DNA of 64,000 nt from an uncultured Acidobacteriaceae bacterium (GCA_964236325.1 CAXSEC010000001.1:53325-117324), one strand, 5' to 3'. Shown: positions 1-38,363, numbered from the stretch's first letter. Notes: generated by a model not told the origin, from the sequence alone. Made by a program: numbers and translations.

Positions 1-405
1 CGCAGACTGCTGCGCGCCACTACTCTTTCTTTCTGACTTGCTTTGCATTAAGCCTTGGCCTTTTCTTCCTGGATGAGATCGTGCCCTGCCGCTTTTCTTC
101 CTAAGCCGCGCGAACGCCGGCCGCAATGTGGCAGTCGGAGGAAGCTGAAGCTTTCGATCGCTTGAACTTATCCTGCGAGGTTTTGATCGCTTGCGTGGCT
201 TTGTGCACGCAGAGCGGGAGCGGACACGGCAAGGAGTATGGCCGCGATCGGCTTGATAGAGAGAAGGGTGAGAGGCACGTCGCTCACGATAGCCGGCAAT
301 CTTGAACATGCGATTTCATTTAGGTGAACTTCCATGAGCCGAGATACGCCGTGGCTCGACCGCTCTCCTTCATCGTCAGGAGGACAATCAAACATTGCGG
401 CTTCG

Positions 406-771
406 TTACGACTCGTTCGTCGCTGCGGGAAGACGCAGCTCTGCGGTGCAGCCCTGGGTGTCGGACCGGTTGCTGACGGTGAGGGAGCCTTTGTGGGCCG
501 CGGCGATCTGAGGGGCGAGCACGGGCCTGATATCGCTTCCGTTCGGCCTGGTTGTGTAGAAGGGCACGAAGAGGGGTTTGCCGGGTTGGTCAGGCCCGGC
601 CCGGTTGTCGAGGATCTGCAGGACGATCTCTTCGTTCGTGCTGTCGTTGGAGCGGAAGGTGACCTGCGGGGGGCGATTTACGCGGCGTCGGAAGAGGTGG
701 CCGCAACCACGGCGTTGCGGATGAGGGTGAAGGCGAATACGGGTGAAGGCATCGAGGTCATGCGTAGGCAT
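406..771 (-). pseudogene. Remnant of a histidine kinase HATPase_c domain
   Basis: LQILDNRAG..LFVPFYTTRPNGSDIRPVLAPQIAAAHKGSLTVSNR is a degraded form of D.G.G / FYTTK..GSGIGL...QI..AHGG. The G1/G2 glycines are lost and there is no H-box or sensor domain. Confidence 0.6.
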
Positions 772-935
772 GTTCGCGGGAGTGAATGTTGCCGCGCGTC
801 TGCTCTAAGCGCAGCGTTACTTCTGACAATGCGACAGACCGGGGCGAAACAAGCGGTGAAAGGTGCACCTCTCGTTGAGTGCCGATGCAGCGTAATAGGG
901 TTCGCTATCGGGACGACCCACTCATGCGCGCCACT

Positions 936-2576
936 CTACCGCAGGTTCAGCAGCTGGAACTCTCCGTCATAGCCCTCCATCTCCTCCTCCGCCTCCATGG
1001 GCTGTTGAGCTAAGGAGCGCACCGCCAAATGCAGTAGCATGGTCGACGCCACGATGGGGACCAGCAGCCAGAGTTGTCGCTCTACCCTGCCTTCCGCATA
1101 GGCGATCCCAAACAGGAATGGCGTCAACACTCCCAGGTACAGCGTCAGAAACAGAGCGAAGTTCGATCGGCCTGGCATTCTCGGCTGGATGAGCGGTGCT
1201 GATCGCGCATAGAAGAAACTATCTGTGAGAAACAATGCCAGGCACCCTCCACAGATAGCCTGCACCAGCAGCGCACGAGTGCTCCACCCCGCCGCAGTCA
1301 ACACCACCACACTGCTGAAGAGGAGACCCGCTGCCGCCAGAGTTGCCCATCGCTTTCCTGCCGCCGCCAGATCCCGGTCGTCAGAACCCGCGACCCGGAA
1401 CACCCACCGCGCCGCCAATGTCTCCGGAAACGCGAACGCCGTTCGCAGCCCTGCCACTATCCAAAAACACAATAGTGCAAATACCGCGTGCATCCCAAAG
1501 GTTGAGAGCGAAGGTGTAGCCGTCTCGGACCGCAGCACTACACCACACGCCAAAGCCAGCGCCAGACCCGTCCCGCCGTACATTGCCAAATAAACATGGT
1601 AGCGAGCGATGCGGCGGATCGTCTGCCCAATGAAGTAAAACATTGCTCTCTCCTGTGGAGTGCGTACCACCGCACAGACGCTGCGTGACAGTACCGCCAG
1701 TGGTGCTTTTCTCTGCCGCGCGTCGCCCTCCAGCGCCATGCGCCGCATCCGCGCCCATGCCCCCGGGTAGGTTGCCACTGCCAGCGTCAGCGCAACGGTT
1801 GTGCCCCACAACGCCCATGGGGTTAGCTCTTGTGAAAATGCCGGCCCTGCCGGCCCGTGCAGCAGCTTCTCATAGAGCCCCAGGAACCACAGCGGCGGAA
1901 GCCAGCGTGCTTGCCCAGGCTGCGCCAGCAGCACGTGCAGTGATTGCCCGTAACGGGCATACTGCACCACGACAAGCACCAGGCATCCCGTCACCAGCGT
2001 CTGCACTACCGCACTCACGATGCGGAACGGCCTGTCTCGGATGAGGCATCGCAGTGGGCCACCCGTAGTCACCAGCGCCGCAGAAAGAAAGACTCCGCCA
2101 AGCCCCACCGCTACCACGTGCGCCAGCAGTTGACGGAAGAACGTCCCCTTCGCGACCAACGAGTACATCAGGGAGCCGGGCAGGCTTGCGCCCGCCAGGA
2201 AGAAGGCCAGAAAGCAGCACAACGCACCCACTTTTGCGGTCATCACTCGCCCCTGTGCGAGCGGCAGGGGCGTCAGCACCAAGAAGTCTGCGCGATCCGG
2301 AAACAGCATCTCCCACTCAAACACCGTGACTACGCCCATCACGACAAATGTCAGCAGCACGAAGAAGTATTCATCGTCCCATCTGCCCGCCATATCTCGC
2401 CGCGGGTATTGGTTCTGCAGGAAAAACGCCAACACCAGCCCGGGCATGGCCACCATCGCAAGAGCGCGCACGATCGTCGTCATGGTGTCGCCCTCCACCT
2501 GCACCGTGTCGTTGTCGAAGAAGCGCCGGAAGAAGTGCACCATGAGTCGCTTAAGCGTCCCTCCGCCGTCACGCAT
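936..2576 (-). CDS. Polytopic membrane protein, putative ABC transporter permease
   Basis: 546 aa with many hydrophobic helices; overlaps the end of the upstream ABC ATPase ORF. Confidence 0.75.
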   Translation of the reverse strand: MRDGGGTLKRLMVHFFRRFFDNDTVQVEGDTMTTIVRALAMVAMPGLVLAFFLQNQYPRRDMAGRWDDEYFFVLLTFVVMGVVTVFEWEMLFPDRADFLVLTPLPLAQGRVMTAKVGALCCFLAFFLAGASLPGSLMYSLVAKGTFFRQLLAHVVAVGLGGVFLSAALVTTGGPLRCLIRDRPFRIVSAVVQTLVTGCLVLVVVQYARYGQSLHVLLAQPGQARWLPPLWFLGLYEKLLHGPAGPAFSQELTPWALWGTTVALTLAVATYPGAWARMRRMALEGDARQRKAPLAVLSRSVCAVVRTPQERAMFYFIGQTIRRIARYHVYLAMYGGTGLALALACGVVLRSETATPSLSTFGMHAVFALLCFWIVAGLRTAFAFPETLAARWVFRVAGSDDRDLAAAGKRWATLAAAGLLFSSVVVLTAAGWSTRALLVQAICGGCLALFLTDSFFYARSAPLIQPRMPGRSNFALFLTLYLGVLTPFLFGIAYAEGRVERQLWLLVPIVASTMLLHLAVRSLAQQPMEAEEEMEGYDGEFQLLNLR

Positions 2577-3350
2577 GGTGCACCTGCATGACCTGCACCA
2601 GCTCCTGTGCGAGCTGCTCTGTGTCTGTGTGCCGCACCAGCTGCGAGAACACCGCCTCCAGATTTGGCAGAGCCATCAGCTGCGTCAGCTCCTGCGGTTT
2701 GGCGTCGGCAACCACTCTGCCTTTGGACAAGATGATGACCCGCTGGCACACCCGTTCCACAACTTCCAGCACATGCGAGATGTACAGGATTGCCTTGCCT
2801 TCTCTTGCTAGCAGGACCAATAGATCTTCGAAGAGACGAGCCGAAACCGCATCCAGCCCGGACAGCGGCTCGTCAAAGACAATCAGCTTCGGATCGTGCA
2901 GCAGAGCAGCCGCAATTAGGACTCGCTGTTTCATTCCCTCGAGTACTCCGTCATCGGGGAGTATTGCGCGGCCTCCAGCGACAGAAGGTACAGCAATCCC
3001 CGCGCCTTGCGCTCGATCAATCCTTCCGCCAACCCGCGCAGCCTGCCGACCAGCTGCAGATACTCCATACCGGAGAGATGGGTGTAGACCTGCGCCTCCT
3101 CCGGCACATACCCCAGCTGTGCCCGGTAACGTGCGAGATCCTGGTGAATGTCCTGTCCGGCGAAGAGGACCTTGCCGCGAGTTGGCCGAATCATCCCGAT
3201 GACCATCTTCACCGTGGTCGATTTCCCGGAACCATTCGGCCCGAGGTAGCCGAGCACTTCGCCTGGCCTGAGGGTGAAGCTGACACCCTCGACAGCAGGT
3301 ATGCCGCGATAGACCTTTGCTACGGATTGCAGTTCCAACATTGCATTCAC
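2569..3350 (-). pseudogene. ABC transporter ATP-binding protein, frameshifted into two ORFs
   Basis: Walker A GPNGSGKST is in 2931-3350; MKQRVLIA...FDEP (Walker B) and the ISH H-loop are in 2569-2934. The break lies inside the signature YS(R/K)GMKQR, where TCG AGG GAA TGA lacks one base. Confidence 0.85.
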
Positions 3351-3353
3351 CCC

Positions 3354-3391
3354 CTATGTAGTGAACTAGTATGTGCTAGCATACTACATAG
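3354..3391. promoter_or_regulatory. Nested inverted repeats between divergent ABC ATPase and padR (putative operator / bidirectional promoter)
   Basis: CTATGTAGT (3354-3362) pairs with ACTACATAG (3383-3391); TAGTATG (3367-3373) pairs with CATACTA (3380-3386). Confidence 0.6.
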
Positions 3392-3393
3392 CA

Positions 3394-3699
3394 ATGGCTG
3401 CTCTCCGTCTTTCCCATAGCGCTGCTCTCATCCTCAGGGCGCTCCATCTCGGCTACCGCTTCGGACTCGAAGTGATGGAGGTCACTGGCCTGCCTAGTGG
3501 CACCGTTTACCCGGCACTACGCCGCCTCGAGCGCGATTCTCTCGTCGCTTCGAAGTGGGAGTCTGACGCCGAAGCCGCCGGTAAGCAGCGCCCCGCCCGC
3601 CGCTACTATGAGGTGACCGACGCAGGACGGCTCGCGGCCAAGACCGCTATGGAGCGTTACCCGCTCCTCGCACATCTGTCTCCGGAGCGGCCCGCATGA
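3394..3699 (+). CDS. PadR family transcriptional regulator
   Basis: GTVYPALRRLE...W...RPARRYYEVTDAG winged-helix motif; ATG at 3394 preferred as start. Confidence 0.9.
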   Translation: MAALRLSHSAALILRALHLGYRFGLEVMEVTGLPSGTVYPALRRLERDSLVASKWESDAEAAGKQRPARRYYEVTDAGRLAAKTAMERYPLLAHLSPERPA

Positions 3700-4538
3700 A
3701 CCTCACGGAAGGTCAGCAGACTAGACTCCTCATGCACGTAGCACGCATTGTGCCCGCTACAGACCGAGCCGAGTGGTCCCGCTTTTGGTACGCCGAGCTT
3801 TGGTGCCAACGGTATGCCGACCCGGTTCGGACCACCACCGATCTCCATGCCGGGCTCATTTGGGATGCGCTCTGGCTTCGCATGGAGCGTTGTCGCTGCA
3901 GCCTTCGTGGAACCGCCATGCTGTGTCTTGCCACGATTGCGATCGCCTGCATCCTGGCTCTCCTGCTCGCCACTTGCAGCGTCGGCAGTTGGGGAAGGTT
4001 CACCAGCCGCCTTGCCGAGGATTATGGCCGCTTTCTTCTGGCCAGTCCGCTCATTCTGCTCGTGACCTTTCTCACTGCTTCACGCCGCGCCGTCCACGCC
4101 AGCACCACGGTTAGACACGTTGTCTCGCGGTGTGGCTGGCTTCTTCGTGCCGGCTTCTTCATGGCGAAAAGCACTTTAATTTTCAGCCTCGCGTACCTGC
4201 TTGGCGTCGGACTGTGCGCGCCCTTCACGGGCGCATTCCCAAACACGGTCGCATTTCTACAGATCCCGCTGTACGTTGTGCTCTCTGTCCTTGCCCTTCG
4301 CTGGTCGTTTGAAGATCAGGAGCGACGCTGCAAGCACTGTCTTCGCCTTCTTAGGGCTCCGGCGCGTGTGGGACGGCCATCTCACAACCTGCTCGAATGG
4401 AGTGGCACGGCTCTGGTCTGTGTCCGTGGCCATGGCGTTCTGAGCATTCCTGAGCTTGAAACCAGTTGGCACCAAAGCAACGAGTGGACTCAGGCCATCG
4501 TCGAACCTTTCGCTTCCAGCAACGAACATCTGGCGTGA
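3696..4538 (+). CDS. Membrane protein with C-terminal Cys/His (putative Zn-binding) domain
   Basis: ATGA overlap with padR; about 4 TM helices; RCKHC...CVRGHG motif. Confidence 0.75.
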   Translation: MNLTEGQQTRLLMHVARIVPATDRAEWSRFWYAELWCQRYADPVRTTTDLHAGLIWDALWLRMERCRCSLRGTAMLCLATIAIACILALLLATCSVGSWGRFTSRLAEDYGRFLLASPLILLVTFLTASRRAVHASTTVRHVVSRCGWLLRAGFFMAKSTLIFSLAYLLGVGLCAPFTGAFPNTVAFLQIPLYVVLSVLALRWSFEDQERRCKHCLRLLRAPARVGRPSHNLLEWSGTALVCVRGHGVLSIPELETSWHQSNEWTQAIVEPFASSNEHLA

Positions 4539-11418: not shown

Positions 11419-12831
11419 TCAGCAGATCTCCTCGAGTGATTTGCGTTCGGCGGCAACCCCCCAGATTGCCTGAGCGACGCCTGCACAGATCATGATCACG
11501 GCGCTCGCCATAAAGCCGTAAAAGATGGGTGTACGAGCGTTGCGGTTGAGCAGGGAGCCAAAGATCAGCGGGCCCAGCACTCCGCCCAGTAGCGTCCCGA
11601 TCGCGTAAAAAATCGCAATCGCGGAGGCACGGATCTGCTGCGGGAACAGCTCGCTGGTGGTGAGATATGCGGAGCCTGCAGCCGAGGCAGCGAAGAAGAA
11701 CGATACCGCCCACCAAGCGACCTGTGAGACGGCCGAAAGGTGGCCGTGCAGGAAGAGGAGGCTGGACGTGCCGAAGACTACCCCGGTGATGCAGAAGTTG
11801 AGCGCAATCATAGTACGGCGGCCGACGGAGTCGAAGAGGCGGCTAAGCAGGACGGGGCCGATGAAGTTCGTAAACGCGATGGGCAGGAAGAGCACTCCAG
11901 CATGGGCGGCGGAGATGCCGTAAAAGCGCAGCAGGATCAGCGTGCTCGAAAAGAAGACGGAGTTATAAAAGAAAGACTGTGCCATCGTAAGGGCGAGGCA
12001 GAGCAGCGCGCGGCCACGGTGGCGCGGACCCAAAAGCTGCGCGACGCGGGTAAAGAGGTTTCCGGTGCTGCGATGGACCTCGATGGTTCGTTTAACGGGC
12101 GGCTGTGGCCCGTGCTGTTTGGCGACGGCGCCTTCAATCTCCCCTACGATCGTCTCGGCTTCCTCGACGCGTCCGTGGGTCAACAGCCAACGCGGACTCT
12201 CCGGGATGTGTCGACGCAGGAACAAGATGCCGATCGCGATGGGCAAGCCGGACAGCATGGCGGCGCGCCAGCCAAGGCGCAAGCCGAAACCATGATCGGA
12301 CAAGAAGCCGACTGCCACGAGGGAACCAAGGATGACTCCGATCCAGAAGCTGGAGCCAATGATGAGGTTCGCGGCGCCGCGTACACGTGCGGGGATCAGC
12401 TCGTCAATGGCAGAGGTAATAGCCGTGTATTCGCCCCCGATCCCCGCGCCGGTGATCGTCCGGCAGAGAGCGAAGGTGGCCAGGTTCCAGGAAAACGCGG
12501 TGAGCGCCGTGGAACAGGCGTAAACCGCAAGCGTCCAGAAGAAAATGCTTTTGCGGCCGAAGCGGTCAGCCAGAAAGCCGAAGACGAGCGCACCAATAAC
12601 GGTGCCGGCGAGATAGCCGCTTGATGCGAAGCCGAGCTGGCGGTCAGTAAGGTTAAGCGTTGTGGCGGACTTGAGCGCGCCGGAGATCGAACCGCCGACG
12701 CCGCCTTCCAGACCGTCCAGCAGGAACGTGATGCCAAGCGCGAGCGCCCTACGCATGTGCCAGCGGCTCCAAGGCAAGCGGTCCAGGCGCAGGGGGAGGT
12801 TGGTTTGGAACGCCTCTTCGGTGCTCGGCAT
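11419..12831 (-). CDS. MFS transporter
   Basis: RLDRLPW, GFLADRFGRK, GIGGEY, PESPRWL, SELFP motifs; start at 12831 has RBS AGGAG. Confidence 0.9.
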   Translation of the reverse strand: MPSTEEAFQTNLPLRLDRLPWSRWHMRRALALGITFLLDGLEGGVGGSISGALKSATTLNLTDRQLGFASSGYLAGTVIGALVFGFLADRFGRKSIFFWTLAVYACSTALTAFSWNLATFALCRTITGAGIGGEYTAITSAIDELIPARVRGAANLIIGSSFWIGVILGSLVAVGFLSDHGFGLRLGWRAAMLSGLPIAIGILFLRRHIPESPRWLLTHGRVEEAETIVGEIEGAVAKQHGPQPPVKRTIEVHRSTGNLFTRVAQLLGPRHRGRALLCLALTMAQSFFYNSVFFSSTLILLRFYGISAAHAGVLFLPIAFTNFIGPVLLSRLFDSVGRRTMIALNFCITGVVFGTSSLLFLHGHLSAVSQVAWWAVSFFFAASAAGSAYLTTSELFPQQIRASAIAIFYAIGTLLGGVLGPLIFGSLLNRNARTPIFYGFMASAVIMICAGVAQAIWGVAAERKSLEEIC

Positions 12832-12931
12832 GCGTCGACTCCTGAGTTGCAGATGCTGGCGGTTCGAGACAGACAACTACGGCTGTTACAGCAGACTCGT
12901 ATAGGTGACAACAAAACAGAAGCGGGTGCCG

Positions 12932-13855
12932 TTACCGGATGAGTTGAGCCAAAGCGTGCAGGTCCCGTTCGGCGTGCGATTGGCGAGTGTATAGGTCGGC
13001 TTCGGCGTAGCGGCGGGCGACAGACTGGTTCATGGCCAGCGGCTGCGGGCCATAGGCCCGAGCAAAGCGACGGAGGACGTCGGTGGCGAGCTGCTCGGCC
13101 GTGTGGCGCAGGGCGAGCGCGCGAATCTGTGCGGCAGGGATGTCGGTCGGTGCTGCATCCATCTCATGCGCCGCCTGCGTCAGGAGCGATCGTAAGGCCC
13201 AGACGTTTGCATGCATGGCTCCAAGGTGGGCCAGCGTGTGAGGATCGTCGCGCTTGTTTGCCATGGCGGCGTCGAGGAGACCAGCGACGCCGCCCGCCCA
13301 GCACGCGGCGGGCCCGCAAGCGCCATGCCAGAAGCCGGGACGTGAGAGGTACCAACCGGGCTTACTGATAACGGAGGCGGCAGGGAGCACGGCTGAGTTC
13401 AGGGTCAGGCCACCGGTTTGCGTGTCGCGAAAGGCGTCGACCTGCCAGGTCGTCAGGTCGGCTTCGCAGTGTTCCCAGTTGGCGCGCAGGTCAAGGTCGA
13501 GCAAGAGCGGGTCCGCCCCGCCGGTGGTCATGAGTGCGCGGTCGACCAGGCCGATGCCGCTGCAGAACGCCTTTTGTCCGGAGATCGTGTAGCCGTTGGT
13601 TTCGGGGCTAAGCTGGAGCGCATGGCCGGGGATTTCCGACGCCCAGACAGCGTAAAGCGCATTCGGCGCAGGTTTGCGGCCGGCCTCAGCAAGGATTGCC
13701 ACTGCATCCCAATGCGCTTCGGCGAGCTTGGCCAGCGTAAGATCTTCACGAGCGACCTCAAACAGTCGCAGATGACGCGCGGCGGTCTGGCCGGCAGCAG
13801 GCAGCGGCAGGGTTTCGCGGACGATTTGCTGCAGGCGTTCGGCGAGGACGCTCAA
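12932..13855 (-). CDS. Short acyl-CoA dehydrogenase-like flavoprotein
   Basis: LAEAHWDA, SGQKAFCSG, FWHGA.G.AACWAGG, RQSHAERDL. The TTG start overlaps the GT stop (TTGA) and follows GGAGG. Confidence 0.8.
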   Translation of the reverse strand: MSVLAERLQQIVRETLPLPAAGQTAARHLRLFEVAREDLTLAKLAEAHWDAVAILAEAGRKPAPNALYAVWASEIPGHALQLSPETNGYTISGQKAFCSGIGLVDRALMTTGGADPLLLDLDLRANWEHCEADLTTWQVDAFRDTQTGGLTLNSAVLPAASVISKPGWYLSRPGFWHGACGPAACWAGGVAGLLDAAMANKRDDPHTLAHLGAMHANVWALRSLLTQAAHEMDAAPTDIPAAQIRALALRHTAEQLATDVLRRFARAYGPQPLAMNQSVARRYAEADLYTRQSHAERDLHALAQLIR

Positions 13856-14574
13856 GCGGGACCTCCGTTGTGCGCGGCCAGTGCGACGGCAAAGCCGTCC
13901 GGGGCACGTCCGACACGGCGTCCGCTGGTCAAGACCGACAGCCGTGTGTCCGCGGTTGCGCGGTGCCGGCCTGCTTTCAGCCGATTCCACAGGTCGTGGT
14001 CTTCCGCGATGCGCAACGAGCCCCAGCCACCCGCGGCAACATAAGCGTCCGCACGCACGCCCAGGTTGGCCCCGTGGACGTGGGGGTGGGTGCCGTCCGG
14101 GTGAAGGAGGTAGGACAGGCGGAAGCGCGTGGGAACTTCGGCGTCGTGTTCGGCAAAAGAGTCCACATCGATGATGCCGGCCACAGCGACGTACCCCTCC
14201 ACGGCGAGTGCGAGCTGGTCCACGAGCCACGTTTCAGGGACCTCGCAGTCCGCGTCCGTGTTGGCCAGCCAGCAGCGCTCTGCCGGGGCTGCGGCGCGGC
14301 TGAGGGCTGCTTCGGCAGCCAGCGCGCGCGCGGCTCCCACGCAGGCTGCGTCCGTTTCGATAACCAAGCCGGCTTGCCGGGTCATTGCGGAGGCGATGCG
14401 ATAGGTGTCGTCAACTGAGCTGTCCGCGACGACAACCAGGTCGAAGCTGACGTTTGAGGGAAGACGACGTTGCGCCGCAAGAACGGAGCGCAGGCAGCGT
14501 GCGAGCAAAAGCTCTTCGTTGCGTGCGGGGATCAAAACGGCAATGTGCCAGGCTGCATTGCTGAGCGGGTTCAT
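13852..14574 (-). CDS. Glycosyltransferase family 2
   Basis: LIPARNEE, NTDAD (DxD), GANLGVR, AED motifs. Confidence 0.9.
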   Translation of the reverse strand: MNPLSNAAWHIAVLIPARNEELLLARCLRSVLAAQRRLPSNVSFDLVVVADSSVDDTYRIASAMTRQAGLVIETDAACVGAARALAAEAALSRAAAPAERCWLANTDADCEVPETWLVDQLALAVEGYVAVAGIIDVDSFAEHDAEVPTRFRLSYLLHPDGTHPHVHGANLGVRADAYVAAGGWGSLRIAEDHDLWNRLKAGRHRATADTRLSVLTSGRRVGRAPDGFAVALAAHNGGPA

Positions 14575-15845
14575 CGGCGCACCAGGCGATCCAGGCGAAA
14601 GGTGGGGTGACGCTCGGAGTGATCGAGGGCTAACGACGGCAGGGCGAGCAGCGCCGCATGAACCTCATCGCCAGAGAGCGTGTGATCCTTCGAGTAGCCG
14701 AGCCAGTGGGCAGCGAGGACGGTCGTGCCGGGTCGGAGCGGCTCGATCATTGATTTGGCGAGTGCCATCCATTCGGCAAGCGGAAAGTAGTAGCCGATCT
14801 CGCTCAGAACCAGGAGGTCAGTCGTTGCGCTGGGCAGGACATCCGGCATGGAGGCGCACTCCACCGTGACGTGCGGCAGGCAAGCACAGCGCTCACGTGC
14901 CCGTGCGGCGGCGGTTGCAGAGAAATCGAGAGCATGGACGTGGTCGCATAGCAAGGCTAGCCGCTCCGTCAGCACGCCGACAGAACAGCCGGGCTCGAAC
15001 GCGCTGACATAGCGTTGATGCGCAAGCGCGCCAATGATGCAGTCATAGCGGAAGAGCTCTGAAGGCTTGGACGAAAAGCTCCAAGGATCGGCCTCTTTCT
15101 GGTACTTTGCTTCAAAAAAGGCCGGAGACGAGGTAAAGCTGGGAACGCTGCTGACGGGGATGTAAATCTCAAAGGCGCGTTCCGCCGGCTGAAGGAGACG
15201 AGCGGACAGGATTGGCTCGCCGTCTTCGTGGGACATCTGGGAAGTGTGCGCGGCAAGCGCGTACAGCTTCGTCGCGCGCTCGGCTTCGGTCAGCGGAAGC
15301 GCGGTCAGAGGTAAGCCGGCCAGCGTTTCAGGCGTCCCACGATGCCATGTCCAGAAGAGATAGTAGAAGAGTGGAACATTCGCCTGGGCAGCAATCCGCA
15401 GGGCGGCGCGTCCGGCAGCTTCGTGGTCGGGGTGAAAGTCATGCGGCCATGGCGCGATGATCTGCGTGCAGCCCTGTGCGACCAGGCGGAGCGCCGCGAC
15501 GAGCTCCTCCTCGTGCTCAGAGACGAAGCGATCCGGAATGCCAAGCCGCTCGATCATGGTCTCGTCAACACCAAGCCTTGTGAGCGCTTCGGTCTGCTCC
15601 GGCACGCGCAGGCGGTTGAGGTCGGGGGTGTCGGCGTAGGCGCCTTCGCCGTCCGTGATCGCCAACACCATGACCGGGACTCCGTGCGCTCGCAGACGAG
15701 CGATTAGACCGCCGGCACCTAGCGTCTCATCATCCGGATGGGGTGCGAGGACAATCGTCGGCACTAGCGGCGGTGGCCAGTGCGGGACGTCGCTAAGGCA
15801 AGAGAGCCAGTCGTCTTCGGCGGTGATCGGGATGATGGTAGGCAT
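14571..15845 (-). CDS. PIG-L/LmbE deacetylase fused to a NodS-like SAM methyltransferase
   Basis: APHPDDE and HPDH metal motifs; C-terminal DPW.F...FEPGCSVG (SAM motif I) and SEIGYYF. Confidence 0.9.
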   Translation of the reverse strand: MPTIIPITAEDDWLSCLSDVPHWPPPLVPTIVLAPHPDDETLGAGGLIARLRAHGVPVMVLAITDGEGAYADTPDLNRLRVPEQTEALTRLGVDETMIERLGIPDRFVSEHEEELVAALRLVAQGCTQIIAPWPHDFHPDHEAAGRAALRIAAQANVPLFYYLFWTWHRGTPETLAGLPLTALPLTEAERATKLYALAAHTSQMSHEDGEPILSARLLQPAERAFEIYIPVSSVPSFTSSPAFFEAKYQKEADPWSFSSKPSELFRYDCIIGALAHQRYVSAFEPGCSVGVLTERLALLCDHVHALDFSATAAARARERCACLPHVTVECASMPDVLPSATTDLLVLSEIGYYFPLAEWMALAKSMIEPLRPGTTVLAAHWLGYSKDHTLSGDEVHAALLALPSLALDHSERHPTFRLDRLVRR

Positions 15846-15866
15846 ACGTCAGTACTGGCGGGCGCT

Positions 15867-17339
15867 TCAGACGCGGGTTTCCTGCCACTTCCCTCTCAAA
15901 AAGAATGTACTGCTGAGTACCAGGGCAAGCGCCTGGGCGACAAGTATTGAGACGAAGACGCCGTTCAGCTTCAGTGGCGTGTGCGTGGAAAGAAACCAGG
16001 CCAGAGGAATCTCGATGACCCAGAAGCCAACGAGGTTGAGATACGTGGGCGTGACCGTGTCTCCCGCGCCGTTGAATGCTTGCAGGAAGACGGCTGCGAA
16101 AGCGAAGAAGAAGTTGCCATAACAGAAGACGCGCAAAGCCACCACTCCGGTTGGAATCACGGAGGGATCATGCGTAAAGAGGCCCACAAGCCTGGGAGCG
16201 AGCAGGATAAACAGCAGGCTCAGGCTTCCGAGAAAGCCGAAGCTGAGTACGCCGGTGCGCCAGACAGAGCTTCTTGCCCGTTCCGGCGCCTTGGCCCCGA
16301 GGCTCTGTCCAACCAGAGTCGCGGCCGCATTGTTAAGGCCGAAGGTAGGGAGAAGGATAAAACCCGACAGCCGAAATGCGATGGTGTATGCCGCAATAGC
16401 GACCGCTCCGAACAGACTGACAATACGAACAAGGGCAAGCCAACGGCCCTGCTCAAGAACGAATTGGAGGGCGCCGGCACCGGAGATTCTAAGATAGGAA
16501 AGCATCTCCTGGAGGTTGAGCCGCAGGTGCTTCGCTTGAATGTGGAGCCGCTCGTTGCCGCGGCCCAGCCGGTAGAACTGGTATAGCACAGCGCATCCTC
16601 GACCGATCAGCGTTGCCACGGCAGGGCCGGTGACGCCGAGCTTTGGGAATGGACCGACGCCGAAGACCAGCAGAGGATCCAGTACGAGATTGATAATGTT
16701 GGCGACCCAAAGCAGGCGCATGGCGATCGCGGCGTCGCCGGCCCCGCGGAATAGGGCGTTGGAGAGCGAGATCATGATGATGACGCCGCATGTGCCGAGT
16801 GCAATGTGCGCGTAGTTGGTGCCGATGGCGAGCACAGGCGAAGTGGCACCCATCAGGGTCAGCAGCTTGGGCGCGAGAAAGAAGAGCGGAACTCCAAGCG
16901 CGATGCTGACCATCAACCCCGCACCGAGCGCCTGTACGGCATCAGTTGCGGCCTTGTCATCGTCATCTTCGCCTATGCGCCGTGCGACCATGGCAGTCGC
17001 CGCCGTGCTTAGTCCGGAACTGATGGCGAACACTACCGTCAGTAATGACTCCGTCAGACCCACGGCCGCGATCGCGTCCGGCCCGAGCTTACTGACCCAG
17101 AAGAGGTCGGCAATGCCGAATACCGATTCGAGCGCCATCTCGAGCATCATGGGGATGGCCAACAGCGCGATCGCCTGGTTGAGGCTATACACCGCGTAAT
17201 CAATCTTTGCGCCAGCGAGGGACTTCTTGAATAGATCCCACATGGTAAAGCGCTGCTCTTTGACGGTAGTTGTCTCCTCCATGGCCCCAGATTCCATTAC
17301 CTCTTTAGTGGATAGGCATCTAGGTGGGGTTGTGTTCAC
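15867..17339 (-). CDS. MATE family efflux transporter
   Basis: LAIPMMLEM, ALFRGAGD, NLVLDPLL, GAVAIAAY, AFNGAGDT; the true start may be about 17297 or 17282. Confidence 0.9.
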   Translation of the reverse strand: MNTTPPRCLSTKEVMESGAMEETTTVKEQRFTMWDLFKKSLAGAKIDYAVYSLNQAIALLAIPMMLEMALESVFGIADLFWVSKLGPDAIAAVGLTESLLTVVFAISSGLSTAATAMVARRIGEDDDDKAATDAVQALGAGLMVSIALGVPLFFLAPKLLTLMGATSPVLAIGTNYAHIALGTCGVIIMISLSNALFRGAGDAAIAMRLLWVANIINLVLDPLLVFGVGPFPKLGVTGPAVATLIGRGCAVLYQFYRLGRGNERLHIQAKHLRLNLQEMLSYLRISGAGALQFVLEQGRWLALVRIVSLFGAVAIAAYTIAFRLSGFILLPTFGLNNAAATLVGQSLGAKAPERARSSVWRTGVLSFGFLGSLSLLFILLAPRLVGLFTHDPSVIPTGVVALRVFCYGNFFFAFAAVFLQAFNGAGDTVTPTYLNLVGFWVIEIPLAWFLSTHTPLKLNGVFVSILVAQALALVLSSTFFLRGKWQETRV

Positions 17340-17614: not shown

Positions 17615-17940
17615 CCTTTCCTGTCGGTGTTCCCGCTGCTGAAAGCCATTGGCCTTCGTGCGGATAGGTTACATAGCTACACATTTTGCCCGCCTTCTCT
17701 AATGCCGCGGGTCTTCTTCCCGTGCATGATTAGCAGAGGCGTGTGAATGCGTAAGACGTCGGGCAGGATATGTGCTTTGCGATAGATTGCCAGCTTCTCC
17801 TCCGGTGTGCCGCCATCTTTGTCTCCCAACGGAGGGCTGAGTTGCGATTGGTGTACTGAAGAAAGAGGCGCGATCCACGACACCAAACATCTCAATCTCC
17901 GCGGCGAAGGTAGCTGGCAGCTTGGTCACAGCATTGGCCA
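17615..17940 (-). pseudogene. C-terminal fragment of an S9 prolyl-oligopeptidase family protein
   Basis: Read across frameshifts: VANAVTKLPATFAA.IEMFGVVDR / GGTPEEK..IY / TPLLIMHG-EEDP / ALEKAGK..YVTYPHEG-xGFQQREHR. Confidence 0.75.
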
Positions 17941-18985
17941 CCGACGGTCCAGCCTCCAGCGGTCGCATTGAGCAGCTTATTGTGCAGGCGAGGTTGCAGG
18001 TACAGCAGGTCTGCCTCGAGGTTAGTCGCGTGTCGAAGTCCGTCGGTCCGTAGGAGCCGGCACCAGTGGAGCCGCTGCTGAACTGGACAGGGTTGAAGAT
18101 GGTGCCGAACCGCGATGCCTTGCTCCAGGTGTAGCTCACCTGTCTTTGCAGGTTATGCACGAAGGCATGCTGCTCTATGACCGTGAGCCCGTTACAGTTG
18201 GAGTAGCCTGCGTCTGAGATTTGCGTCGCCGTGGAAAAGCGCGGATCCGGTGTGCTTGGCGGCAGCCCGGTAAAGCCGTTTGGATACAGTGTCGGATTTG
18301 AGACATAGGCATTGGCGGCTGCGTTCGTTAGTGGTCGTCATAGCCATGATTGCCTCTGTACGAGAAGGTGATAAAGTCGTGCCCCGTCAACGGCTGCTCT
18401 ACTTCCCCACTCCACTCCAGAACCTTAATGATGCGGAAGGTGTCCGGGTTGACGTAGAGCGTCGGTGTTGCGAAGGTTGTTCCACTAGGCACGGCGGCAC
18501 GAATCTGCGTCAGCGTTCCACCCTGTGCGAAGCCGGTCTGGAAGGCCTGGTTCGAGGCGATCGCGGCAGCCTGCGCACTGTCCGCGGCACTCGCAAGGCC
18601 TACCGTTCCTGTACTCGCGATAAGCGAAAACTTGTTGGGGACGTTGCCAAATACGTTCGCTGTGTTGCTTCCGGCGATGGTGTTCGCAAACAAGCCCACA
18701 CCTCCGCGGGTAACTGTTCGCCTTCGCGCAGCGGCGAGTAGGCAAAGCAAATCGTAGCTCCGTGCGATTCCTTCGAAACGCTTAAAGTTCTCGGCAAGCC
18801 AGTCTGGAGTGTCTGGTTGTAGGAGACAGAGAGGCCGGCCTGATATCCCGAGGCGAGAACGCTGTGTTTGCTCGGGAGTAGCAGTCTTCTTTGCAGGAAG
18901 AGTTGCCTTGCAGCTCAAAACGAACGCCGTAGGTTACATTCAGGTTCTTGCGCAGCTTCCACTCATTCTGTGCATAAAGGCGTCG
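17940..18985 (-). pseudogene. Internal fragment of a TonB-dependent receptor (Oar-like)
   Basis: Read across several frameshifts: YAQNEWKLRKNLNVTYGVRFE, FAYSP..TV.RGGVGLF, EWS.EVEQ, SY.GNHG, SYTWSKA, DFDTR, GGWTVGG. Confidence 0.8.
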
Positions 18986-31385: not shown

Positions 31386-32809
31386 TGCGGCTACCTAAAC
31401 TATCTGCGGCTACATCGGCCTTGCTGCTCCTGATGGGCTCGAGCTCACCGATGAGCTTCGCGCAGGCGGCGAGTCCGGCCTCGCCGAATGGCGCTCCCAC
31501 GCAGGGTCTGTCAAATGGGCAAGCTGGTGTTGGCGGCCCCGCGAGTCCGGCGGTCGATACTCCCGCAAACGCGCAAGGCAGCTATCCGCTTGCGGACCAA
31601 CCGATTGCCGACCCGCGTCGCCGACCTGCATCCCGGCCAGGAGCCTTCACGCTGCAGCAGGTGGTGCAGATCGCGCGCGAGCACAATCCGACACTGCTGG
31701 CGGCGGCGGCGAGTCTGCGCGGCACGCGCGCCCAAGAGATTCAGGCAGGCGTACGGGCCAACCCGAATCTTGGCGTGGCGGCGACCAATGTTACCCTGTC
31801 GGCTCAGAACCCCTCCAGTCCGTATCAATACGCGACCCAGGTCTCTCGCTTGTTTGAGCGGGGCCAAAAGCGGAGATATCGTCTTGAGGATGCAAGGGCA
31901 ACGACCACGCAGACGGCCGAGCAGCTCGAGGACACAACACGGCAGACGATCCTGCTGGTGAAGCAGTCGTTCAGCAAGATGTTGATCTCGAAGGCTGCAC
32001 TGGAGCTCGCCAACGCAAATCTGAAGGACTACCGGCACGAGATTGATGTCGCCAACGAACGCTATAAGGCCGGCGACATCGGGTTGCTTGACTTCAAGCG
32101 ACTGGATCTCCAGCTGGGCGGGTTTGAATCTGACCAGGCAAACGCTGAGATCAATCTGCTACAGGCTTCTGACCAGTTGCAGACGCTGATGGGCGTTCCG
32201 GCGCCGGTCAGCGACTTCGACGTTGCTGGTGATATTGTTCCTCCCCCGGTGACAATCCCGGAGAGCGAGTTGACGCGGGTAGCGCTATTGGGACGGCCGG
32301 ATTATCTGGCCGCTCGCACGGCGGTAGTGGTTGCGGAGGCAGCGTCCAGGCTGGCTATCGCGAATGGAACCGCAGATCCTACGCTTGAGGGCGAATATGA
32401 TCGCTCGGGCACCTACAATTCAGCCGGTTTCAACATCAACGTACCGCTGCGGATCTTTGATCGGAACCAGGGCAACAAGCAGACGGCTGAGTATCAGGTG
32501 AGCTCGGCTCGCCTGTCAGAGACCGCCGCGCGGAATCAAGTGGTCTCTGACGTAGATCAGGCGTATGTGGGGTATACCCGCGCTCGCGCTCTGTCCGATC
32601 GTTTTGGAAATCATTATCTGGATGAGAGTACGGATGTGCTTTCGATCGCGCGCTTTGCCTTTGAGCACGGAGGCCTGGCTTTGATCGACTATCTCGACGC
32701 CTTGAGAGACTCCCGATCGTCGACGTCCGATGCGCTCAATGCATATCTGCAGACATGGATGGCCATCCATCAACTGAGCGCTTCAAGCACCCTCGAAGTG
32801 ACACCGTAA
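31385..32809 (+). CDS. TolC/CzcC family outer membrane efflux protein
   Basis: TAATG coupling to the RND gene; signal peptide; VPLRIFDRNQG and G....IDYLDA motifs. Confidence 0.9.
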   Translation: MRLPKLSAATSALLLLMGSSSPMSFAQAASPASPNGAPTQGLSNGQAGVGGPASPAVDTPANAQGSYPLADQPIADPRRRPASRPGAFTLQQVVQIAREHNPTLLAAAASLRGTRAQEIQAGVRANPNLGVAATNVTLSAQNPSSPYQYATQVSRLFERGQKRRYRLEDARATTTQTAEQLEDTTRQTILLVKQSFSKMLISKAALELANANLKDYRHEIDVANERYKAGDIGLLDFKRLDLQLGGFESDQANAEINLLQASDQLQTLMGVPAPVSDFDVAGDIVPPPVTIPESELTRVALLGRPDYLAARTAVVVAEAASRLAIANGTADPTLEGEYDRSGTYNSAGFNINVPLRIFDRNQGNKQTAEYQVSSARLSETAARNQVVSDVDQAYVGYTRARALSDRFGNHYLDESTDVLSIARFAFEHGGLALIDYLDALRDSRSSTSDALNAYLQTWMAIHQLSASSTLEVTP

Positions 32810-34374
32810 CTTTCGAGTGCAGGTCGCTCTTGAGAAGCTTTGCGGGACGGCGCTTGATGCAGTTTGAAGGCTTCAGGCCGGTTGTTCTCTTTCGTCAACT
32901 GTCTCTTTGACCCTCGCGACAGGGTTGGTTCTCGGTCGCTTATGGGCAGGCTGAAGCTGAAGACGGAGCCATGATCCACCTGGCTGGTGACGGTCAAAGA
33001 TCCATGGTGAGCGTCGATGATGGCTCGGCTGATCGCCAAACCCATGCCGGTTCCGGAGGTGTGGTTGCGCTGGGTCTGCGATCGATAGAGACGGTCGAAG
33101 ATGAGGCCCTGCTCCTCTGGCGAGATGCCAATACCGCGGTCGGCCACACTAGTCACGATGAAGCCATCTTTCTCTTCCGCTGAGAGGAAGATCGGGGAGC
33201 CCGCACCGGAGTACTTTGCTGCATTCTCCAGCAGATTGCAGATCACCTTGGCGATCATGATCCTATCCGCAACCACCTTTCGCGAGATTGGCAGGGTGAT
33301 GGTGAGCGGATGCGTAGCAGTCACCCAGGCACAGCTCTCTCGCGCCTCGGCGACGATGTCCTTCAGGTCATCGGGGGCAAAGGACATATGGACCTCCTGC
33401 GATTCGATCTGGGCCATCTCCGTGGCGCGGCTTACCAGTTGATTGAGTCGGTCTGCTTCTTCGTTAATGATGATGAGCAGCTCGTGGCGAGCTTCCGGCA
33501 GGATGTCGTTCATCTCAAGCAGCGTGCCGGTTGCGCCTTTGATGGAGGTCAAGGGGGTGCGCAGCTCGTGGGTGATGGAATCAAGAATGAGCGTGCGGAG
33601 ACTCTCGCTTCGCTTCGTCGCCTCACTGCGGGCCACGTCTTCAAGAGCTTGCGCACGATCGAGAGCGATGGATGTGAGGCCGCTGATGGCCTCGAGCGTA
33701 TCGTTCGAGAGGCGGACGCCTGTGAGTCGCAGCAAACCACGCGGACGCACGCCGACGCGTAGTGGAGCGTGAACATCTCCGTGTGGCAGCACCTCTGGCG
33801 CCACCAGCGAGAGAGCGAGTTGGCGGAGGTGCGGCAGTTCCACCGATGTGGCGCGCCGAACGCCCGCCTGATACAGCCTGTCGCCTTCGAGGAGGTACAG
33901 CGTCGAACTCTCCGCGTGAACCGCCACATTGATGAGCGTGGGCAGGGCGTTGACCAGCTCGGCCACGTTCTGTGTCTGCAGCAGCTCTCGGCTGAGTGTG
34001 AAGAGGATCTGCAGCTCACGCTGCCCGATGCGTGCCTGGTCTGCTTCGTCTCGCGCTTTTTGTGACAGTCGACTGCCCACCACACTGGTCGCCAGAAAAG
34101 CAAAGAGGGCGAGCCAGTTTTGCGGATCAGCAACGGTGAAGGAGCCTAGCGGCGGAAGAAAGTAGAAGTTGTAACACGCTGCCGAAGCCACTGCCGCGGC
34201 GACGGCGTACCGTAGACTAAACCGGGCCGCCACCAGAAGCACGAAGAGCACCAGAGTCAGGGCGACGGTGGTTGTATTAACATGCAGCCAGCGCCGGTAC
34301 AGCAGCACGATCCCGGCGAGCGCGCCGAAGGTTGTGAGCCAACGGGCTGTTATCACTGCATGACGCGAGTTCAT
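32770..34374 (-). CDS. kdpD: KdpD C-terminal half: 4-TM sensor, GAF-like region and histidine kinase
   Basis: NFYFLPPLGSFTVADP, ITHELRTPLTSI, NLLENAAKYS, DRGIG, GTGMGL. Lacks the KdpD and Usp domains and has a long C-terminal tail. Confidence 0.88.
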   Translation of the reverse strand: MNSRHAVITARWLTTFGALAGIVLLYRRWLHVNTTTVALTLVLFVLLVAARFSLRYAVAAAVASAACYNFYFLPPLGSFTVADPQNWLALFAFLATSVVGSRLSQKARDEADQARIGQRELQILFTLSRELLQTQNVAELVNALPTLINVAVHAESSTLYLLEGDRLYQAGVRRATSVELPHLRQLALSLVAPEVLPHGDVHAPLRVGVRPRGLLRLTGVRLSNDTLEAISGLTSIALDRAQALEDVARSEATKRSESLRTLILDSITHELRTPLTSIKGATGTLLEMNDILPEARHELLIIINEEADRLNQLVSRATEMAQIESQEVHMSFAPDDLKDIVAEARESCAWVTATHPLTITLPISRKVVADRIMIAKVICNLLENAAKYSGAGSPIFLSAEEKDGFIVTSVADRGIGISPEEQGLIFDRLYRSQTQRNHTSGTGMGLAISRAIIDAHHGSLTVTSQVDHGSVFSFSLPISDREPTLSRGSKRQLTKENNRPEAFKLHQAPSRKASQERPALESYGVTSRVLEALS

Positions 34375-34389
34375 GGAGCCATTCTAAGC

Positions 34390-35547
34390 TTGTCGCAACG
34401 AGAGCCAACCCCGCGCAAGAGTCCTGAAGACTGGTTGAAGACCAGCACGGATGAGGTCAGTGCGTCTGAGAAGGAGCGAGGCCGATTTAAGATCTTTCTC
34501 GGCTACGCGCCTGGTGTGGGCAAGACCTTCAGCATGCTAAGCGAGGGCATCCGCCGACGCGGACGCGGTGAGGATGTAGCGATCGGCATTGTGGAAACGC
34601 ATGGGCGCACCGGCACGGCGGAGCTGGCGCGCCAGCTGGAGCACATCGCGCAGCGCGAGGTGGAATACAAGGGCACGCTGTTTGCGGAGATGGATGTGGA
34701 CGCCATTCTGGCCCGTGCCCCGCAGGTCGCGCTGGTGGACGAACTGGCGCACACCAACATTGAAGGCAGCCGCTTTCGCAAGCGCTACGAGGACGTTCTT
34801 ATGCTGCTGGAGGCGCGCATCGATGTGCTGAGCACGATTAACATTCAGCACGTGGAAAGCCTGACGCCCAGGGTACAGGCGCTGACGGGTGTCACGATCC
34901 GAGAGCAGGTGCCGGACTGGGTACTGGACCGTGCGGATGAGATCGTAATCAGCGACGTTACGCCCGAGGCGCTGGTGACGCGGATGCGGCGCGGCGACAT
35001 CTACCCGGCCGAGCGTGTGGAGCGCTCGTTGACCAACTTCTTTCGCCGTGGAAATTTGATCGTACTGCGAGAGATGGCACTGCAACGCGTGACGCGAGCC
35101 GTGGATCGCACGCTTGACGAATACGTGAAGCGTAAGAACCTGGGACCGCATTGGGCCGTGGCAGAGAAGGTTGCGGTGTGCATCAGCTCAGGCACACAGG
35201 CGCGTGATCTGATTGCGCGCGGTGCGCGGCTCGCGGAGGCTCTTGACGCCGAGTTCTTTGTGCTGCATGTCGCGGACAAGCGCGATGTGAACGACGATCG
35301 CCGGCGTACGCTTGAGAGCAGCCTGGCGTTTGCGACGCATCTGGGCGCGGTGATCGTTAATCTGCCGGGCGGGGACACGCCGCGCACGACGGCGAGTTTC
35401 ATCTGCGAGCATCGCATCACGCAGGCGATCGTTGGACGATCGGCGACGCACGGTCTTCGATCCTACCTTTACTATCTTTCGTTGCAGAAGTTCATGTCGG
35501 CCGCTCCGCATGTTGATCTGCACATCGTCACGCAGGAGGGACATTGA
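34390..35547 (+). CDS. kdpD: KdpD N-terminal half: KdpD domain plus Usp domain
   Basis: GRFKIFLGYAPGVGKT, VETHGR, LVDELAHTN, NIQHVESL, NFFRRGNL..LREMAL; no TM or kinase domain; TTG start inferred. Confidence 0.9.
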   Translation: MSQREPTPRKSPEDWLKTSTDEVSASEKERGRFKIFLGYAPGVGKTFSMLSEGIRRRGRGEDVAIGIVETHGRTGTAELARQLEHIAQREVEYKGTLFAEMDVDAILARAPQVALVDELAHTNIEGSRFRKRYEDVLMLLEARIDVLSTINIQHVESLTPRVQALTGVTIREQVPDWVLDRADEIVISDVTPEALVTRMRRGDIYPAERVERSLTNFFRRGNLIVLREMALQRVTRAVDRTLDEYVKRKNLGPHWAVAEKVAVCISSGTQARDLIARGARLAEALDAEFFVLHVADKRDVNDDRRRTLESSLAFATHLGAVIVNLPGGDTPRTTASFICEHRITQAIVGRSATHGLRSYLYYLSLQKFMSAAPHVDLHIVTQEGH

Positions 35548-36248
35548 AGCGCGTTCTTGTGGTCGATGATGAGCGCCAGATCACGCGTATGCTGCGCACA
35601 TCGCTCCAGGCCGCCGGCTATGTCGTCGAGGTTGCGGGCAACGGGATGGAGGCCTTTGAGAAGTTCGAGGCATCACGACCTGACCTGGTGATTACGGACC
35701 TGGTGATGCCCGAGATGAACGGGCTTGATCTCACGCGGGCGATCCGGCGGCTAGCAGAGACACCGATCATCGTGCTGAGCGTGCGGGACGCCGACGCCAT
35801 GAAGGTGACGGCGCTCGACGATGGTGCGGACGACTACCTGACCAAGCCCTTCAGCATGCCGGAATTGCTGGCACGTGTGCGCTCTCACCTGCGCAAGACG
35901 CCAGCGATCAGTCCGATGTCGCCTCTCGTAGCTATCGGTGACTTTGTAATCGATACGGATGCGCACATGGTTGCGGTCACTGGAGTGACGGTGCACCTGA
36001 CGCCGAAGGAGTTTGATCTGCTGGTGTTGTTTGCGCGCAATCCTGAGCGGGCGCTGACGCATAAGGTGCTCCTACGCGGCGTGTGGGGGCGGGCCGGAGA
36101 GGACCAGCCAGACTATCTGCGTGTGCTGGTCGCGCAGCTCCGGAAGAAGGTGGAGGGTGGGTCGATCCCGCGGTATATTGTGAGCGAACCATGGGTGGGG
36201 TATCGCTTTCACCCGGCAGGGGATGGCGCCAAACTTACGGCTTCTTAA
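35544..36248 (+). CDS. kdpE: KdpE response regulator (OmpR family)
   Basis: ALDDGADDYLTKPF, HLTPKEF, YLRV.VAQLRKK, EPWVGYRF; located in the kdp locus. Confidence 0.92.
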   Translation: MKRVLVVDDERQITRMLRTSLQAAGYVVEVAGNGMEAFEKFEASRPDLVITDLVMPEMNGLDLTRAIRRLAETPIIVLSVRDADAMKVTALDDGADDYLTKPFSMPELLARVRSHLRKTPAISPMSPLVAIGDFVIDTDAHMVAVTGVTVHLTPKEFDLLVLFARNPERALTHKVLLRGVWGRAGEDQPDYLRVLVAQLRKKVEGGSIPRYIVSEPWVGYRFHPAGDGAKLTAS

Positions 36249-36273
36249 CGGGCTCTCTACGGACTTCATACGG
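36234..36273 (+). promoter_or_regulatory. Four 11-bp-phased direct repeats, putative KdpE binding array
   Basis: CTTACGG, TTAACGG, TCTACGG and CATACGG, with ACGG at 36237, 36248, 36259 and 36270, upstream of the kdp operon. Confidence 0.65.
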
Positions 36274-36397
36274 GCCTAGCTTCTGTAATAGATGAAGCCG
36301 AGGTGTGTGGTTTGCGCGCCGCCTCCGACCTGGTGCAGGGCGTACTTATTTCATCGCCGCGCCTCCTGTTAGCCCGCGCTCGTACCTGGAGTCTCTA

Positions 36398-36576: not shown

Positions 36577-36580
36577 CGTC

Positions 36581-38344: not shown

Positions 38345-38363
38345 GCAAAGGAAAGAGATTTTC

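Follow-up and report, generated by a model that had tools for sequence, protein, structure and literature searches.

A conserved cassette of four enzyme domains in Acidobacteriota and two other phyla: a candidate pathway to a stress-associated N-methylated amino-sugar conjugate

Introduction

What is made or modified by the products of five adjacent genes, three for enzymes and two for transporters, in an uncultured Acidobacteriaceae bacterium? The question is raised by positions 11,419-17,339 of a stretch of 64,000 nucleotides (nt) from this organism (GCA_964236325.1, CAXSEC010000001.1:53325-117324; the whole stretch is referred to here as the window). All five open reading frames (ORFs) lie on the minus strand: a MATE transporter, a PIG-L deacetylase fused to a NodS-like methyltransferase (PIG-L::methyltransferase), a family 2 glycosyltransferase (GT2), a flavoprotein with the acyl-CoA dehydrogenase fold (ACAD-like), and a transporter of the major facilitator superfamily (MFS). 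We find that the four enzyme domains form a unit that is conserved across three phyla. We propose, with a probability of about 0.5, that this unit directs a stress-induced pathway in which N-acetylglucosamine (GlcNAc) would be transferred to a small acceptor, de-N-acetylated, N-methylated and then oxidized by a flavin enzyme, yielding a soluble N-methylated amino-sugar conjugate.

The cassette is attractive as a subject because four enzymes are kept together across three phyla, are co-regulated with trehalose genes in Acinetobacter baumannii, and have no assigned product in the searched literature. The window's copy is in itself not special. The papers returned by literature searches were irrelevant or merely listed the genes, and no characterized pathway or product was found among them, in agreement with an earlier reading of the DNA alone (the original prediction), which described the enzyme set as having no assigned product. 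If the proposal is correct, the cassette would add a new small molecule to the stress protectants trehalose, mycothiol and bacillithiol, and a new type of reaction to the ACAD fold.

Conservation of the cassette

A total of 134 loci, each up to ~20 kb, were gathered and scored with profiles built for this analysis. Nine were removed before counting (eight repeats of the same region and the second half of a split gene), leaving 125; the 134 did not include the unrelated ACAD locus L011 or the short loci L001-L005. The scan for relatives used one pattern and took the best 80 of 558, so that the sample is biased towards close relatives, and some genomes contributed two or three loci each, such that kin are not independent. 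PIG-L, methyltransferase, GT2 and ACAD domains were found all together in 100 of the 125 loci, comprising 46 of 58 acidobacterial loci and 54 of 67 others, with carriers in Acidobacteriota, Actinomycetota and Pseudomonadota. Truncated and frameshifted loci are among those without all four. The clustering of the four enzyme domains is not due to chance, and the earlier statement that this enzyme set recurs in other phyla is borne out by the non-acidobacterial loci. Across the loci, the domains occur in shuffled orders and varied fusions.

At least four gene orders were seen. The order PIG-L, methyltransferase, GT2, ACAD is that of Acidobacteria and Legionella lytica; ACAD, PIG-L, methyltransferase, GT2 is found in Streptomyces, Pseudomonas and Acinetobacter; and many mycobacteria and rhodococci have GT2, ACAD, PIG-L, methyltransferase. 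The PIG-L::methyltransferase fusion is present as originally described but is lineage-specific and sporadic, occurring in 2 of 41 acidobacterial loci and elsewhere in one more acidobacterial locus and five actinobacterial loci (the carriers are the window, L032, L033, L075 and those five). The conserved unit is the set of four enzyme domains, and the window's fusion and transporters are local variations upon it. Among the genomes screened, the ACAD-like gene was detected in 31 of 200 from the genus and 16 of 300 from the family, and also in plasmid records from Acinetobacter, Streptomyces, Cupriavidus, Comamonas and others.

Some genomes carry more than one cassette, with two copies in the genome studied here and three in another (G499). 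The second, distant copy in this genome (G000:C2 ~62330-66140; L061:7332-11143) consists of a diverged PIG-L gene and a gene for a 485-residue GT2, facing a fusion of ACAD-like and NodS-like domains, and adjoins a gene for a GH63/MGH1-like glycosidase. A search for long ACAD fusions of 644-2000 residues found none, which is weak evidence, as this range leaves out the ACAD::methyltransferase form of 584-623 residues. Three apparent GT2::ACAD fusions (P0155, P0221 and P0261) look like frameshift joins and were not used.

Several further observations concern the history of the cassette. Decayed or frameshifted copies are present in several Acidobacteriaceae (L051 in G448, L022, L026 and L060), from which it appears that the cassette is often gained and lost. 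On a Legionella lytica plasmid (L006), the gene order is acidobacterial, and a quick tree places the ACAD among acidobacterial sequences on a long branch; together, these features hint at transfer between phyla. Two Pseudomonas loci have a second cassette-type PIG-L gene directly after GT2 (L137:12990-13847 and L139:13107-13865).

Predicted activities of the cassette enzymes

Scans against Pfam and NCBIfam assigned each cassette protein to a broad family (PIG-L and NodS; Glycos_transf_2; Acyl-CoA_dh_1, barely at its cut-off), and none of the cassette enzymes reached the cut-off of a named equivalog. The catalytic motifs of the PIG-L, methyltransferase and GT2 domains are invariant across the cassette. 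The PIG-L domain (Pfam, 6.6e-23, 82 bits against a cut-off of 28) has the hallmarks of PIG-L/LmbE enzymes, namely the HxDD...H zinc triad, the general-base Asp and the HPDH motif. Residues H36, D38, D39, R80, D105 and H141 are invariant in 80 of 80 aligned rows, and H138 and D140 are conserved in 79 of the 80. We take R80 and D105 to match the sugar-binding Arg and Asp of MshB. The best profile matches of known structure are diacetylchitobiose deacetylases, TT1542, LnmX, BshB and MshB. The domain is predicted to be a de-N-acetylase of GlcNAc conjugates.

For the methyltransferase domain (Pfam NodS, 5e-11), the profile retrieves PDB 4isc (3e-56), an orthologue titled merely "Methyltransferase", and then NodS itself (3ofj, 6e-28), with the next named enzyme at 1e-13. 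DPW and ExxYY motifs are common to the domain and NodS, and the NodS equivalog of NCBIfam scores 51 bits against a cut-off of 300. The affinity of the fusion protein for PIG-L deacetylases and NodS, asserted in the original prediction, is upheld: the nearest characterized relatives of its two domains are GlcNAc de-N-acetylases and NodS, and the active sites are intact.

GT2 matches PF00535 at 3.5e-14 (53.5 bits against a cut-off of 23.3). Across 80 rows, D107-x-D109, E191-D192, T216, R219 and R223 are invariant, giving DxD, ED and TSxR motifs. The predicted structure, which has a predicted local distance difference test (pLDDT) score of 94.6, matches GT-A folds with Z scores of ~20 and contains no membrane helix. 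UDP-GlcNAc is the predicted donor, on a model whose fold matches do not discriminate between donors.

The ACAD-like protein, in its predicted structure (pLDDT 97.6), has a three-domain ACAD fold, with Z scores of 27-28.5 and a best root-mean-square deviation of 2.7 over 300 residues, and the chain begins 30-65 residues into the matched chains. Profile comparison prefers 5gj7/5z8t (2e-15) and the flavin monooxygenases TdsC (2e-12) and DszC; 5gj7 and 5z8t are titled flavin-containing monooxygenase, and 5z8t is ranked first by Foldseek. Two positions were aligned with the catalytic Glu of dehydrogenases using profile alignments, the second of them by ungapped extension past the end of the alignment. 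Position 178, which we take to be the IYEG-type Glu site of MCAD, is Gly in 111 of 114 rows. At position 293, presumably the helix G Glu site of LCAD and IVD, the five commonest residues are His (35), Ser (30), Cys (22), Thr (4) and Gln (4), with no Glu among them. The protein also has a shortened loop at the site of the FAD-binding Arg, which that loop presumably carries in acyl-CoA dehydrogenases, and it shares with TdsC the flavin-side motifs KxFCSG and W-x3-M-x2-T. Because of the profile preference, the missing dehydrogenase Glu and the shortened loop, a monooxygenase dependent on flavin mononucleotide (FMN) is likelier than an acyl-CoA dehydrogenase. E46, D50, R172 and W186 are invariant in the 114 rows, and His294 is conserved in 108. 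The family has motifs of its own, ExHxD and RQxH, of which ExH and RQ are kept even in the distant second copy. No partner flavin reductase was seen among the neighbour proteins scanned, a scan that did not extend genome-wide.

Stress genes and an upstream motif

The surroundings of the cassette suggest a role in general stress, a context absent from the original prediction. Recurrent neighbours encode a short-chain dehydrogenase, a zinc dehydrogenase, a long catalase (21 of 125 loci), topoisomerase IB (12), DUF7218 (12), LigD, DUF892, DUF2383 and OtsA (otsA, 5). At least one of 11 stress markers lies within ~10 kb in 53 of the 125 loci, with the proviso that the markers were chosen by hand and the count has no background rate. 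Additional evidence comes from A. baumannii, where the operon ACICU_02432-02435 and otsAB are both reported to fall in colistin-dependent mutants, the operon by 31- to 62-fold (PMC5660220). This operon was equated with the cassette by annotation and gene order, and another A. baumannii record has all four orthologues in the same order. In the accessible parts of two other papers, cassette genes beside blsA in Acinetobacter are named in gene-context figures, with no reaction or product (PMC9020721, PMC6240043). A SigF-dependent GT2, MSMEG_1097, could not be shown from the available portion of its source to belong to a cassette and was not used (PMC4694148); PMC12029717 and PMC7660261, as far as their available text goes, concern other genes. 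The cassette is likely transcribed within a general-stress or desiccation regulon.

A second line of evidence is a short motif, GCATCNNA, upstream of the acidobacterial enzyme genes. Among dereplicated acidobacterial loci, 27 of 31 (39 before dereplication) have the pentamer GCATC in the 80 nt that precede PIG-L. The corresponding counts are 2 for the opposite strand and 5 for a stretch farther away, and shuffling gives a mean of 4.1 and a maximum of 11. The eighth motif position is A in 25 of 26. GCATC was found post hoc, and the next-best pentamer scored 13 against 27. Upstream of it, the acidobacterial loci L012-L059 showed no conserved -35 element. In this genome, GCATCNNA lies upstream of 130 of the 1934 genes with intergenic upstream DNA, as compared with 28 in antisense orientation, and the whole window has fewer copies of it than expected (16 against 44). 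The genes that it precedes, of which 19 were picked by hand, include those for Mn catalase, DUF892, topoisomerase IB, DUF2171, DUF3606, YidB and 4-alpha-glucanotransferase. In the second cassette copy, both the ACAD::NodS-like fusion gene and the glycosidase gene have GCATCNNA upstream. GCATCNNA is a likely -10 element for a stress sigma factor in Acidobacteria. No description of the motif was found in a literature search by titles and listings. It could serve as a handle on the stress regulon of these bacteria.

Where a MATE gene precedes the enzymes, the motif persists between the two. A perfect GCATCTGA occupies the position of the MATE stop in L032 and L033, and GCATCGA(A/G) lies in the gap between MATE and PIG-L in L041 and L042. 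This persistence suggests a separate promoter for the enzymes. The corresponding sequence in the window is GCGTCTGA, probably what is left of a stress promoter element that belonged to the cassette; a perfect minus-strand copy of GCATCNNA was not found between 11419 and 17500.

Relation to known systems

Nod-factor tailoring in rhizobia involves a GT2 (NodC), a deacetylase (NodB), an N-methyltransferase (NodS) and an acyltransferase (NodA). The cassette resembles this system in combining GT2, de-N-acetylation and then N-methylation by a NodS-type enzyme. It differs in that its GT2 is a soluble domain of 240 residues and not a membrane chitin-oligomer synthase, its deacetylase is of the PIG-L and not the NodB type, a flavoprotein stands in the place of NodA, and its hosts are not symbionts. 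Pfam and NCBIfam scans of the five window proteins revealed no NodC, NodB-type deacetylase or NodA.

Mycothiol (MshA/MshB/MshC/MshD) and bacillithiol (BshA/BshB/BshC) are formed by the transfer of GlcNAc to a small acceptor followed by de-N-acetylation by a PIG-L-family enzyme, and they protect against stress. The presence of BshB and MshB among the PIG-L profile matches is a parallel, but the cassette has a GT2 instead of a GT4, an additional methyltransferase and flavoprotein, and a PIG-L domain that scores far below the cut-offs for BshB1 (56 against 182), BshB2 (55 against 195) and MshB (28 against 224). No cysteine ligase (MshC/BshC) was detected among 40 neighbour proteins scanned, which leaves the remainder of the genomes outside the search. 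By analogy, the cassette appears to follow the transfer, deacetylation and modification logic of Nod factors and mycothiol as a member of neither.

The ACAD-like protein shares its fold (Z 27-28) and the lack of the dehydrogenase Glu with the group D flavin monooxygenases DszC/TdsC, SfnB/MsuC, KijD3, ORF36 and DnmZ, but it is only 13-20% identical to ACAD-fold monooxygenases, is ~30-65 residues shorter at its N terminus, and scores 27 bits against the SfnB cut-off of 431. KijD3-type enzymes act on the primary amines of TDP-sugars and belong to antibiotic clusters. The Acinetobacter operon beside blsA is orthologous to the cassette, as is PDB 4isc to its methyltransferase; unlike the window, the operon has separate PIG-L and methyltransferase genes, another order and no MATE gene.

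Proposed pathway and alternative explanations

In the proposed pathway, GT2 would use a nucleotide sugar to attach GlcNAc to a small acceptor in the cytoplasm, the PIG-L domain would remove the N-acetyl group, the NodS-like domain would methylate the freed amine using S-adenosylmethionine, and the ACAD-fold protein, with reduced FMN and O2, would oxidize the resulting N-methyl amino sugar. The PIG-L::methyltransferase and ACAD::methyltransferase fusions fit this order of reactions. A specific version, in which the secondary amine of an N-methyl-glucosaminide is N-oxygenated by a new family of ACAD-fold monooxygenases to a hydroxylamine or nitrone that scavenges radicals beside catalase and trehalose when soil bacteria and Acinetobacter dry out, and which is switched on through GCATCNNA in Acidobacteria, is speculative and, in our estimate, unlikely.

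Several observations weigh against the proposed pathway. Cassette-type PIG-L was not found in any of the five genomes whose locus lacks PIG-L (these have distant PIG-L matches only, at most 80 bits compared with 280 for the window genome's own PIG-L), the methyltransferase was not found in three of five genomes whose locus lacks it, and the cassette GT2 was not found in three of five genomes tested. Such gaps, which a strict four-step line would not predict, might arise from incomplete genomes, decaying loci or replacement by other PIG-L enzymes. For 72 of the 125 loci, none of the 11 stress markers is nearby; the window copy has no stress-gene neighbours, and its motif has one mismatch. Structural searches tie true dehydrogenases with monooxygenases (Z 27-28.5), Gln292 (112 of 114 rows) lies at the inferred position of the catalytic His of DszC, which stabilizes the C4a-hydroperoxide, with His294 two residues beyond, and the invariant E46 and D50 have no known counterpart. 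The fold search with GT2 was generic, and its near-tied matches use different donors. The sequence of GlcNAc transfer, deacetylation, N-methylation and oxidation put forward in the original prediction is partly supported, by the conserved set, the intact active sites, and the fusions of deacetylase to methyltransferase and of methyltransferase to flavoprotein; the order of steps, the donor, the acceptor and the product are inferences.

Alternative explanations, not all mutually exclusive, place the flavoprotein or the acceptor differently. The flavoprotein might act first and oxygenate a sulfur-containing or aromatic small molecule, in the manner of DszC, SfnB or HsaA, and this molecule would then be the acceptor that is glycosylated, deacetylated and methylated in a conjugation or detoxification pathway. 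Among its closest matches by profile and by Foldseek are enzymes that oxygenate sulfur or hydroxylate aromatic compounds (TdsC/DszC, the MsuC-type 6u76, XiaF and HsaA), and the weak match to SfnB points the same way. GT2 and ACAD are neighbours in many loci, the best NCBIfam matches of GT2 are MftF and an arsenosugar glycosyltransferase (both far below cut-off), and a MATE transporter would suit the export of a conjugate. However, the only clear fusion partner of the flavoprotein in this genome is the methyltransferase, not GT2, the GT2::ACAD fusions look like frameshift joins, as noted above, and the invariant acidic pair E46 and D50 would better fit a cationic amine. We consider a flavoprotein-first pathway possible but doubtful.

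The acceptor might also be trehalose or another sugar derived from alpha-glucan, so that part of the trehalose pool would become a modified compatible solute. On a Comamonas endophytica plasmid (L009:6535-11503), the four genes are inserted between otsA and otsB, and the junctions are tight (an overlap and a gap, each of 4 nt); in Legionella lytica, otsB and a GH65 gene lie directly upstream of the cassette; in Acinetobacter johnsonii, otsAB is two genes away; and in L079, otsA is 15 nt before GT2. Set against these cases, the five loci with otsA within ~10 kb are fewer than those with catalase, and none is among the 58 acidobacterial loci. Given this rarity, shared regulation explains the link to trehalose equally well, and a trehalose-type acceptor is unlikely. 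Attachment of N-methylglucosamine to a macromolecule, such as a stress protein or a lipid or glycan of the envelope, would suit the GT-A matches to the protein and polymer glycosyltransferases TarS, SunS and GmaR, as well as the recurrence of the small stress proteins DUF2171, DUF7218 and DUF2383 beside the cassette. Such a target is distinctly unlikely, considering that GT2 has no predicted membrane helix, that no single substrate gene is conserved beside the cassette, and that the hosts include both monoderm and diderm bacteria, whose envelopes differ. A soluble conjugate of a small acceptor is the reading that we prefer.

Association with transporters

The original prediction described a five-gene system that includes the two transporters. 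This description holds inside one acidobacterial subclade, where the transporters are co-conserved, but fails as a general claim, since neither MATE nor MFS is beside the core in any of the 67 non-acidobacterial loci. Among the 58 acidobacterial loci, six have MATE next to the core and four have MFS there with at least 74% identity; L051 adds a broken MFS copy, and two distant MFS paralogues were also seen. Both transporters are present in 4 of the 58, plus the rearranged G206, in which MATE, MFS and GT2 adjoin one another and ACAD and PIG-L lie ~8.5 kb away. L032, L033, L041 and L042 retain the full MATE-core-MFS order, with transporter identities of 74-94%. On the ACAD phylogeny, which is a quick tree only, all eight transporter-linked ACADs fall in one clade of 23 rows, together with 14 transporter-free acidobacterial loci. 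The link to the transporters is real but local to one acidobacterial subclade, and most carriers of the cassette have no transporters.

Whether the pathway in this lineage includes MATE and MFS as dedicated components is a separate matter. The retained order, the persistence of the MATE, MFS and GT2 cluster in G206 despite rearrangement, and the single clade would all agree with dedication. MATE homologues occur in 22 genomes of the genus, 13 of which have no match to the cassette ACAD, and the four MATE matches with at least 74% identity are all cassette-linked. By contrast, among the genus MFS homologues at 72% identity or more, four of eight are beside the cassette and four are not, so that equally close MFS genes occur apart from it. 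Transporters are missing from most acidobacterial loci, including the 14 within the same clade; L042 keeps both transporters in a locus that has no methyltransferase; and the enzyme genes retain an upstream motif of their own where MATE precedes them. On balance, dedicated transport is improbable. In this lineage, MATE could export a cationic product and MFS could move a sugar-like substrate.

Locus anatomy and neighbouring genes

The features of the locus are listed in Table 1. The original account of five co-directional genes with particular overlaps and gaps was exact, and all junctions were reproduced. The MATE stop (15867) is separated from the PIG-L::methyltransferase ATG (15845) by 21 nt, the PIG-L::methyltransferase and GT2 genes overlap by ATGA at 14574-14571, GT2 and ACAD overlap by TTGA at 13855-13852, and the ACAD stop (12932) is 100 nt from the MFS ATG (12831). 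One correction concerns the start of MATE, which had been placed at a GTG at 17339; the ATG at 17282 is most likely, since ATG is also found in two close relatives. A scan for sigma-70 promoters and terminators gave nothing above chance.

Table 1. Features of the cassette locus in the window
Feature	Position	Strand	Remark
MFS transporter, sugar/metabolite porter type	11419..12831	-	Pfam Sugar_tr/MFS_1; accessory
ACAD-fold flavoprotein, N-terminally shortened, 307 residues, TTG start	12932..13855	-	core cassette
Small GT2 glycosyltransferase, 240 residues, GT-A fold	13852..14574	-	core cassette
PIG-L/LmbE zinc de-N-acetylase (~residues 1-230) :: NodS-like S-adenosylmethionine methyltransferase (~residues 235-424), 424 residues	14571..15845	-	core cassette
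One-mismatch copy GCGTCTGA of motif GCATCNNA	15867..15874	-	overlaps MATE stop codon
MATE transporter	15867..17282	-	Pfam MatE; accessory

The G+C content of the locus is like that of the remainder of the window, and its closest named homologues, among the matches listed, are from Acidobacteriaceae. Its flanks carry a gene for an S53 peptidase, part of a gene for a TonB-dependent receptor, and lrgAB. The receptor fragment, 5' of MATE (18328-18918, minus strand; Pfam OMP_b-brl_4, 7.6e-10), is probably a decayed gene, and a short frame near it (17699-18160, minus strand) has no Pfam match. Elsewhere in the window, five ORFs of 204-546 residues at 334-4538 and 43454-44482 have no Pfam match at 1e-6. 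A Kdp potassium system spans 32770-40406 with its sensor split into two pieces, a gene for the N-terminal part of KdpD (34282-35547, plus strand) and a gene for a DUF4118 histidine kinase (32770-34374, minus strand), which precede a response regulator gene and kdpAB.

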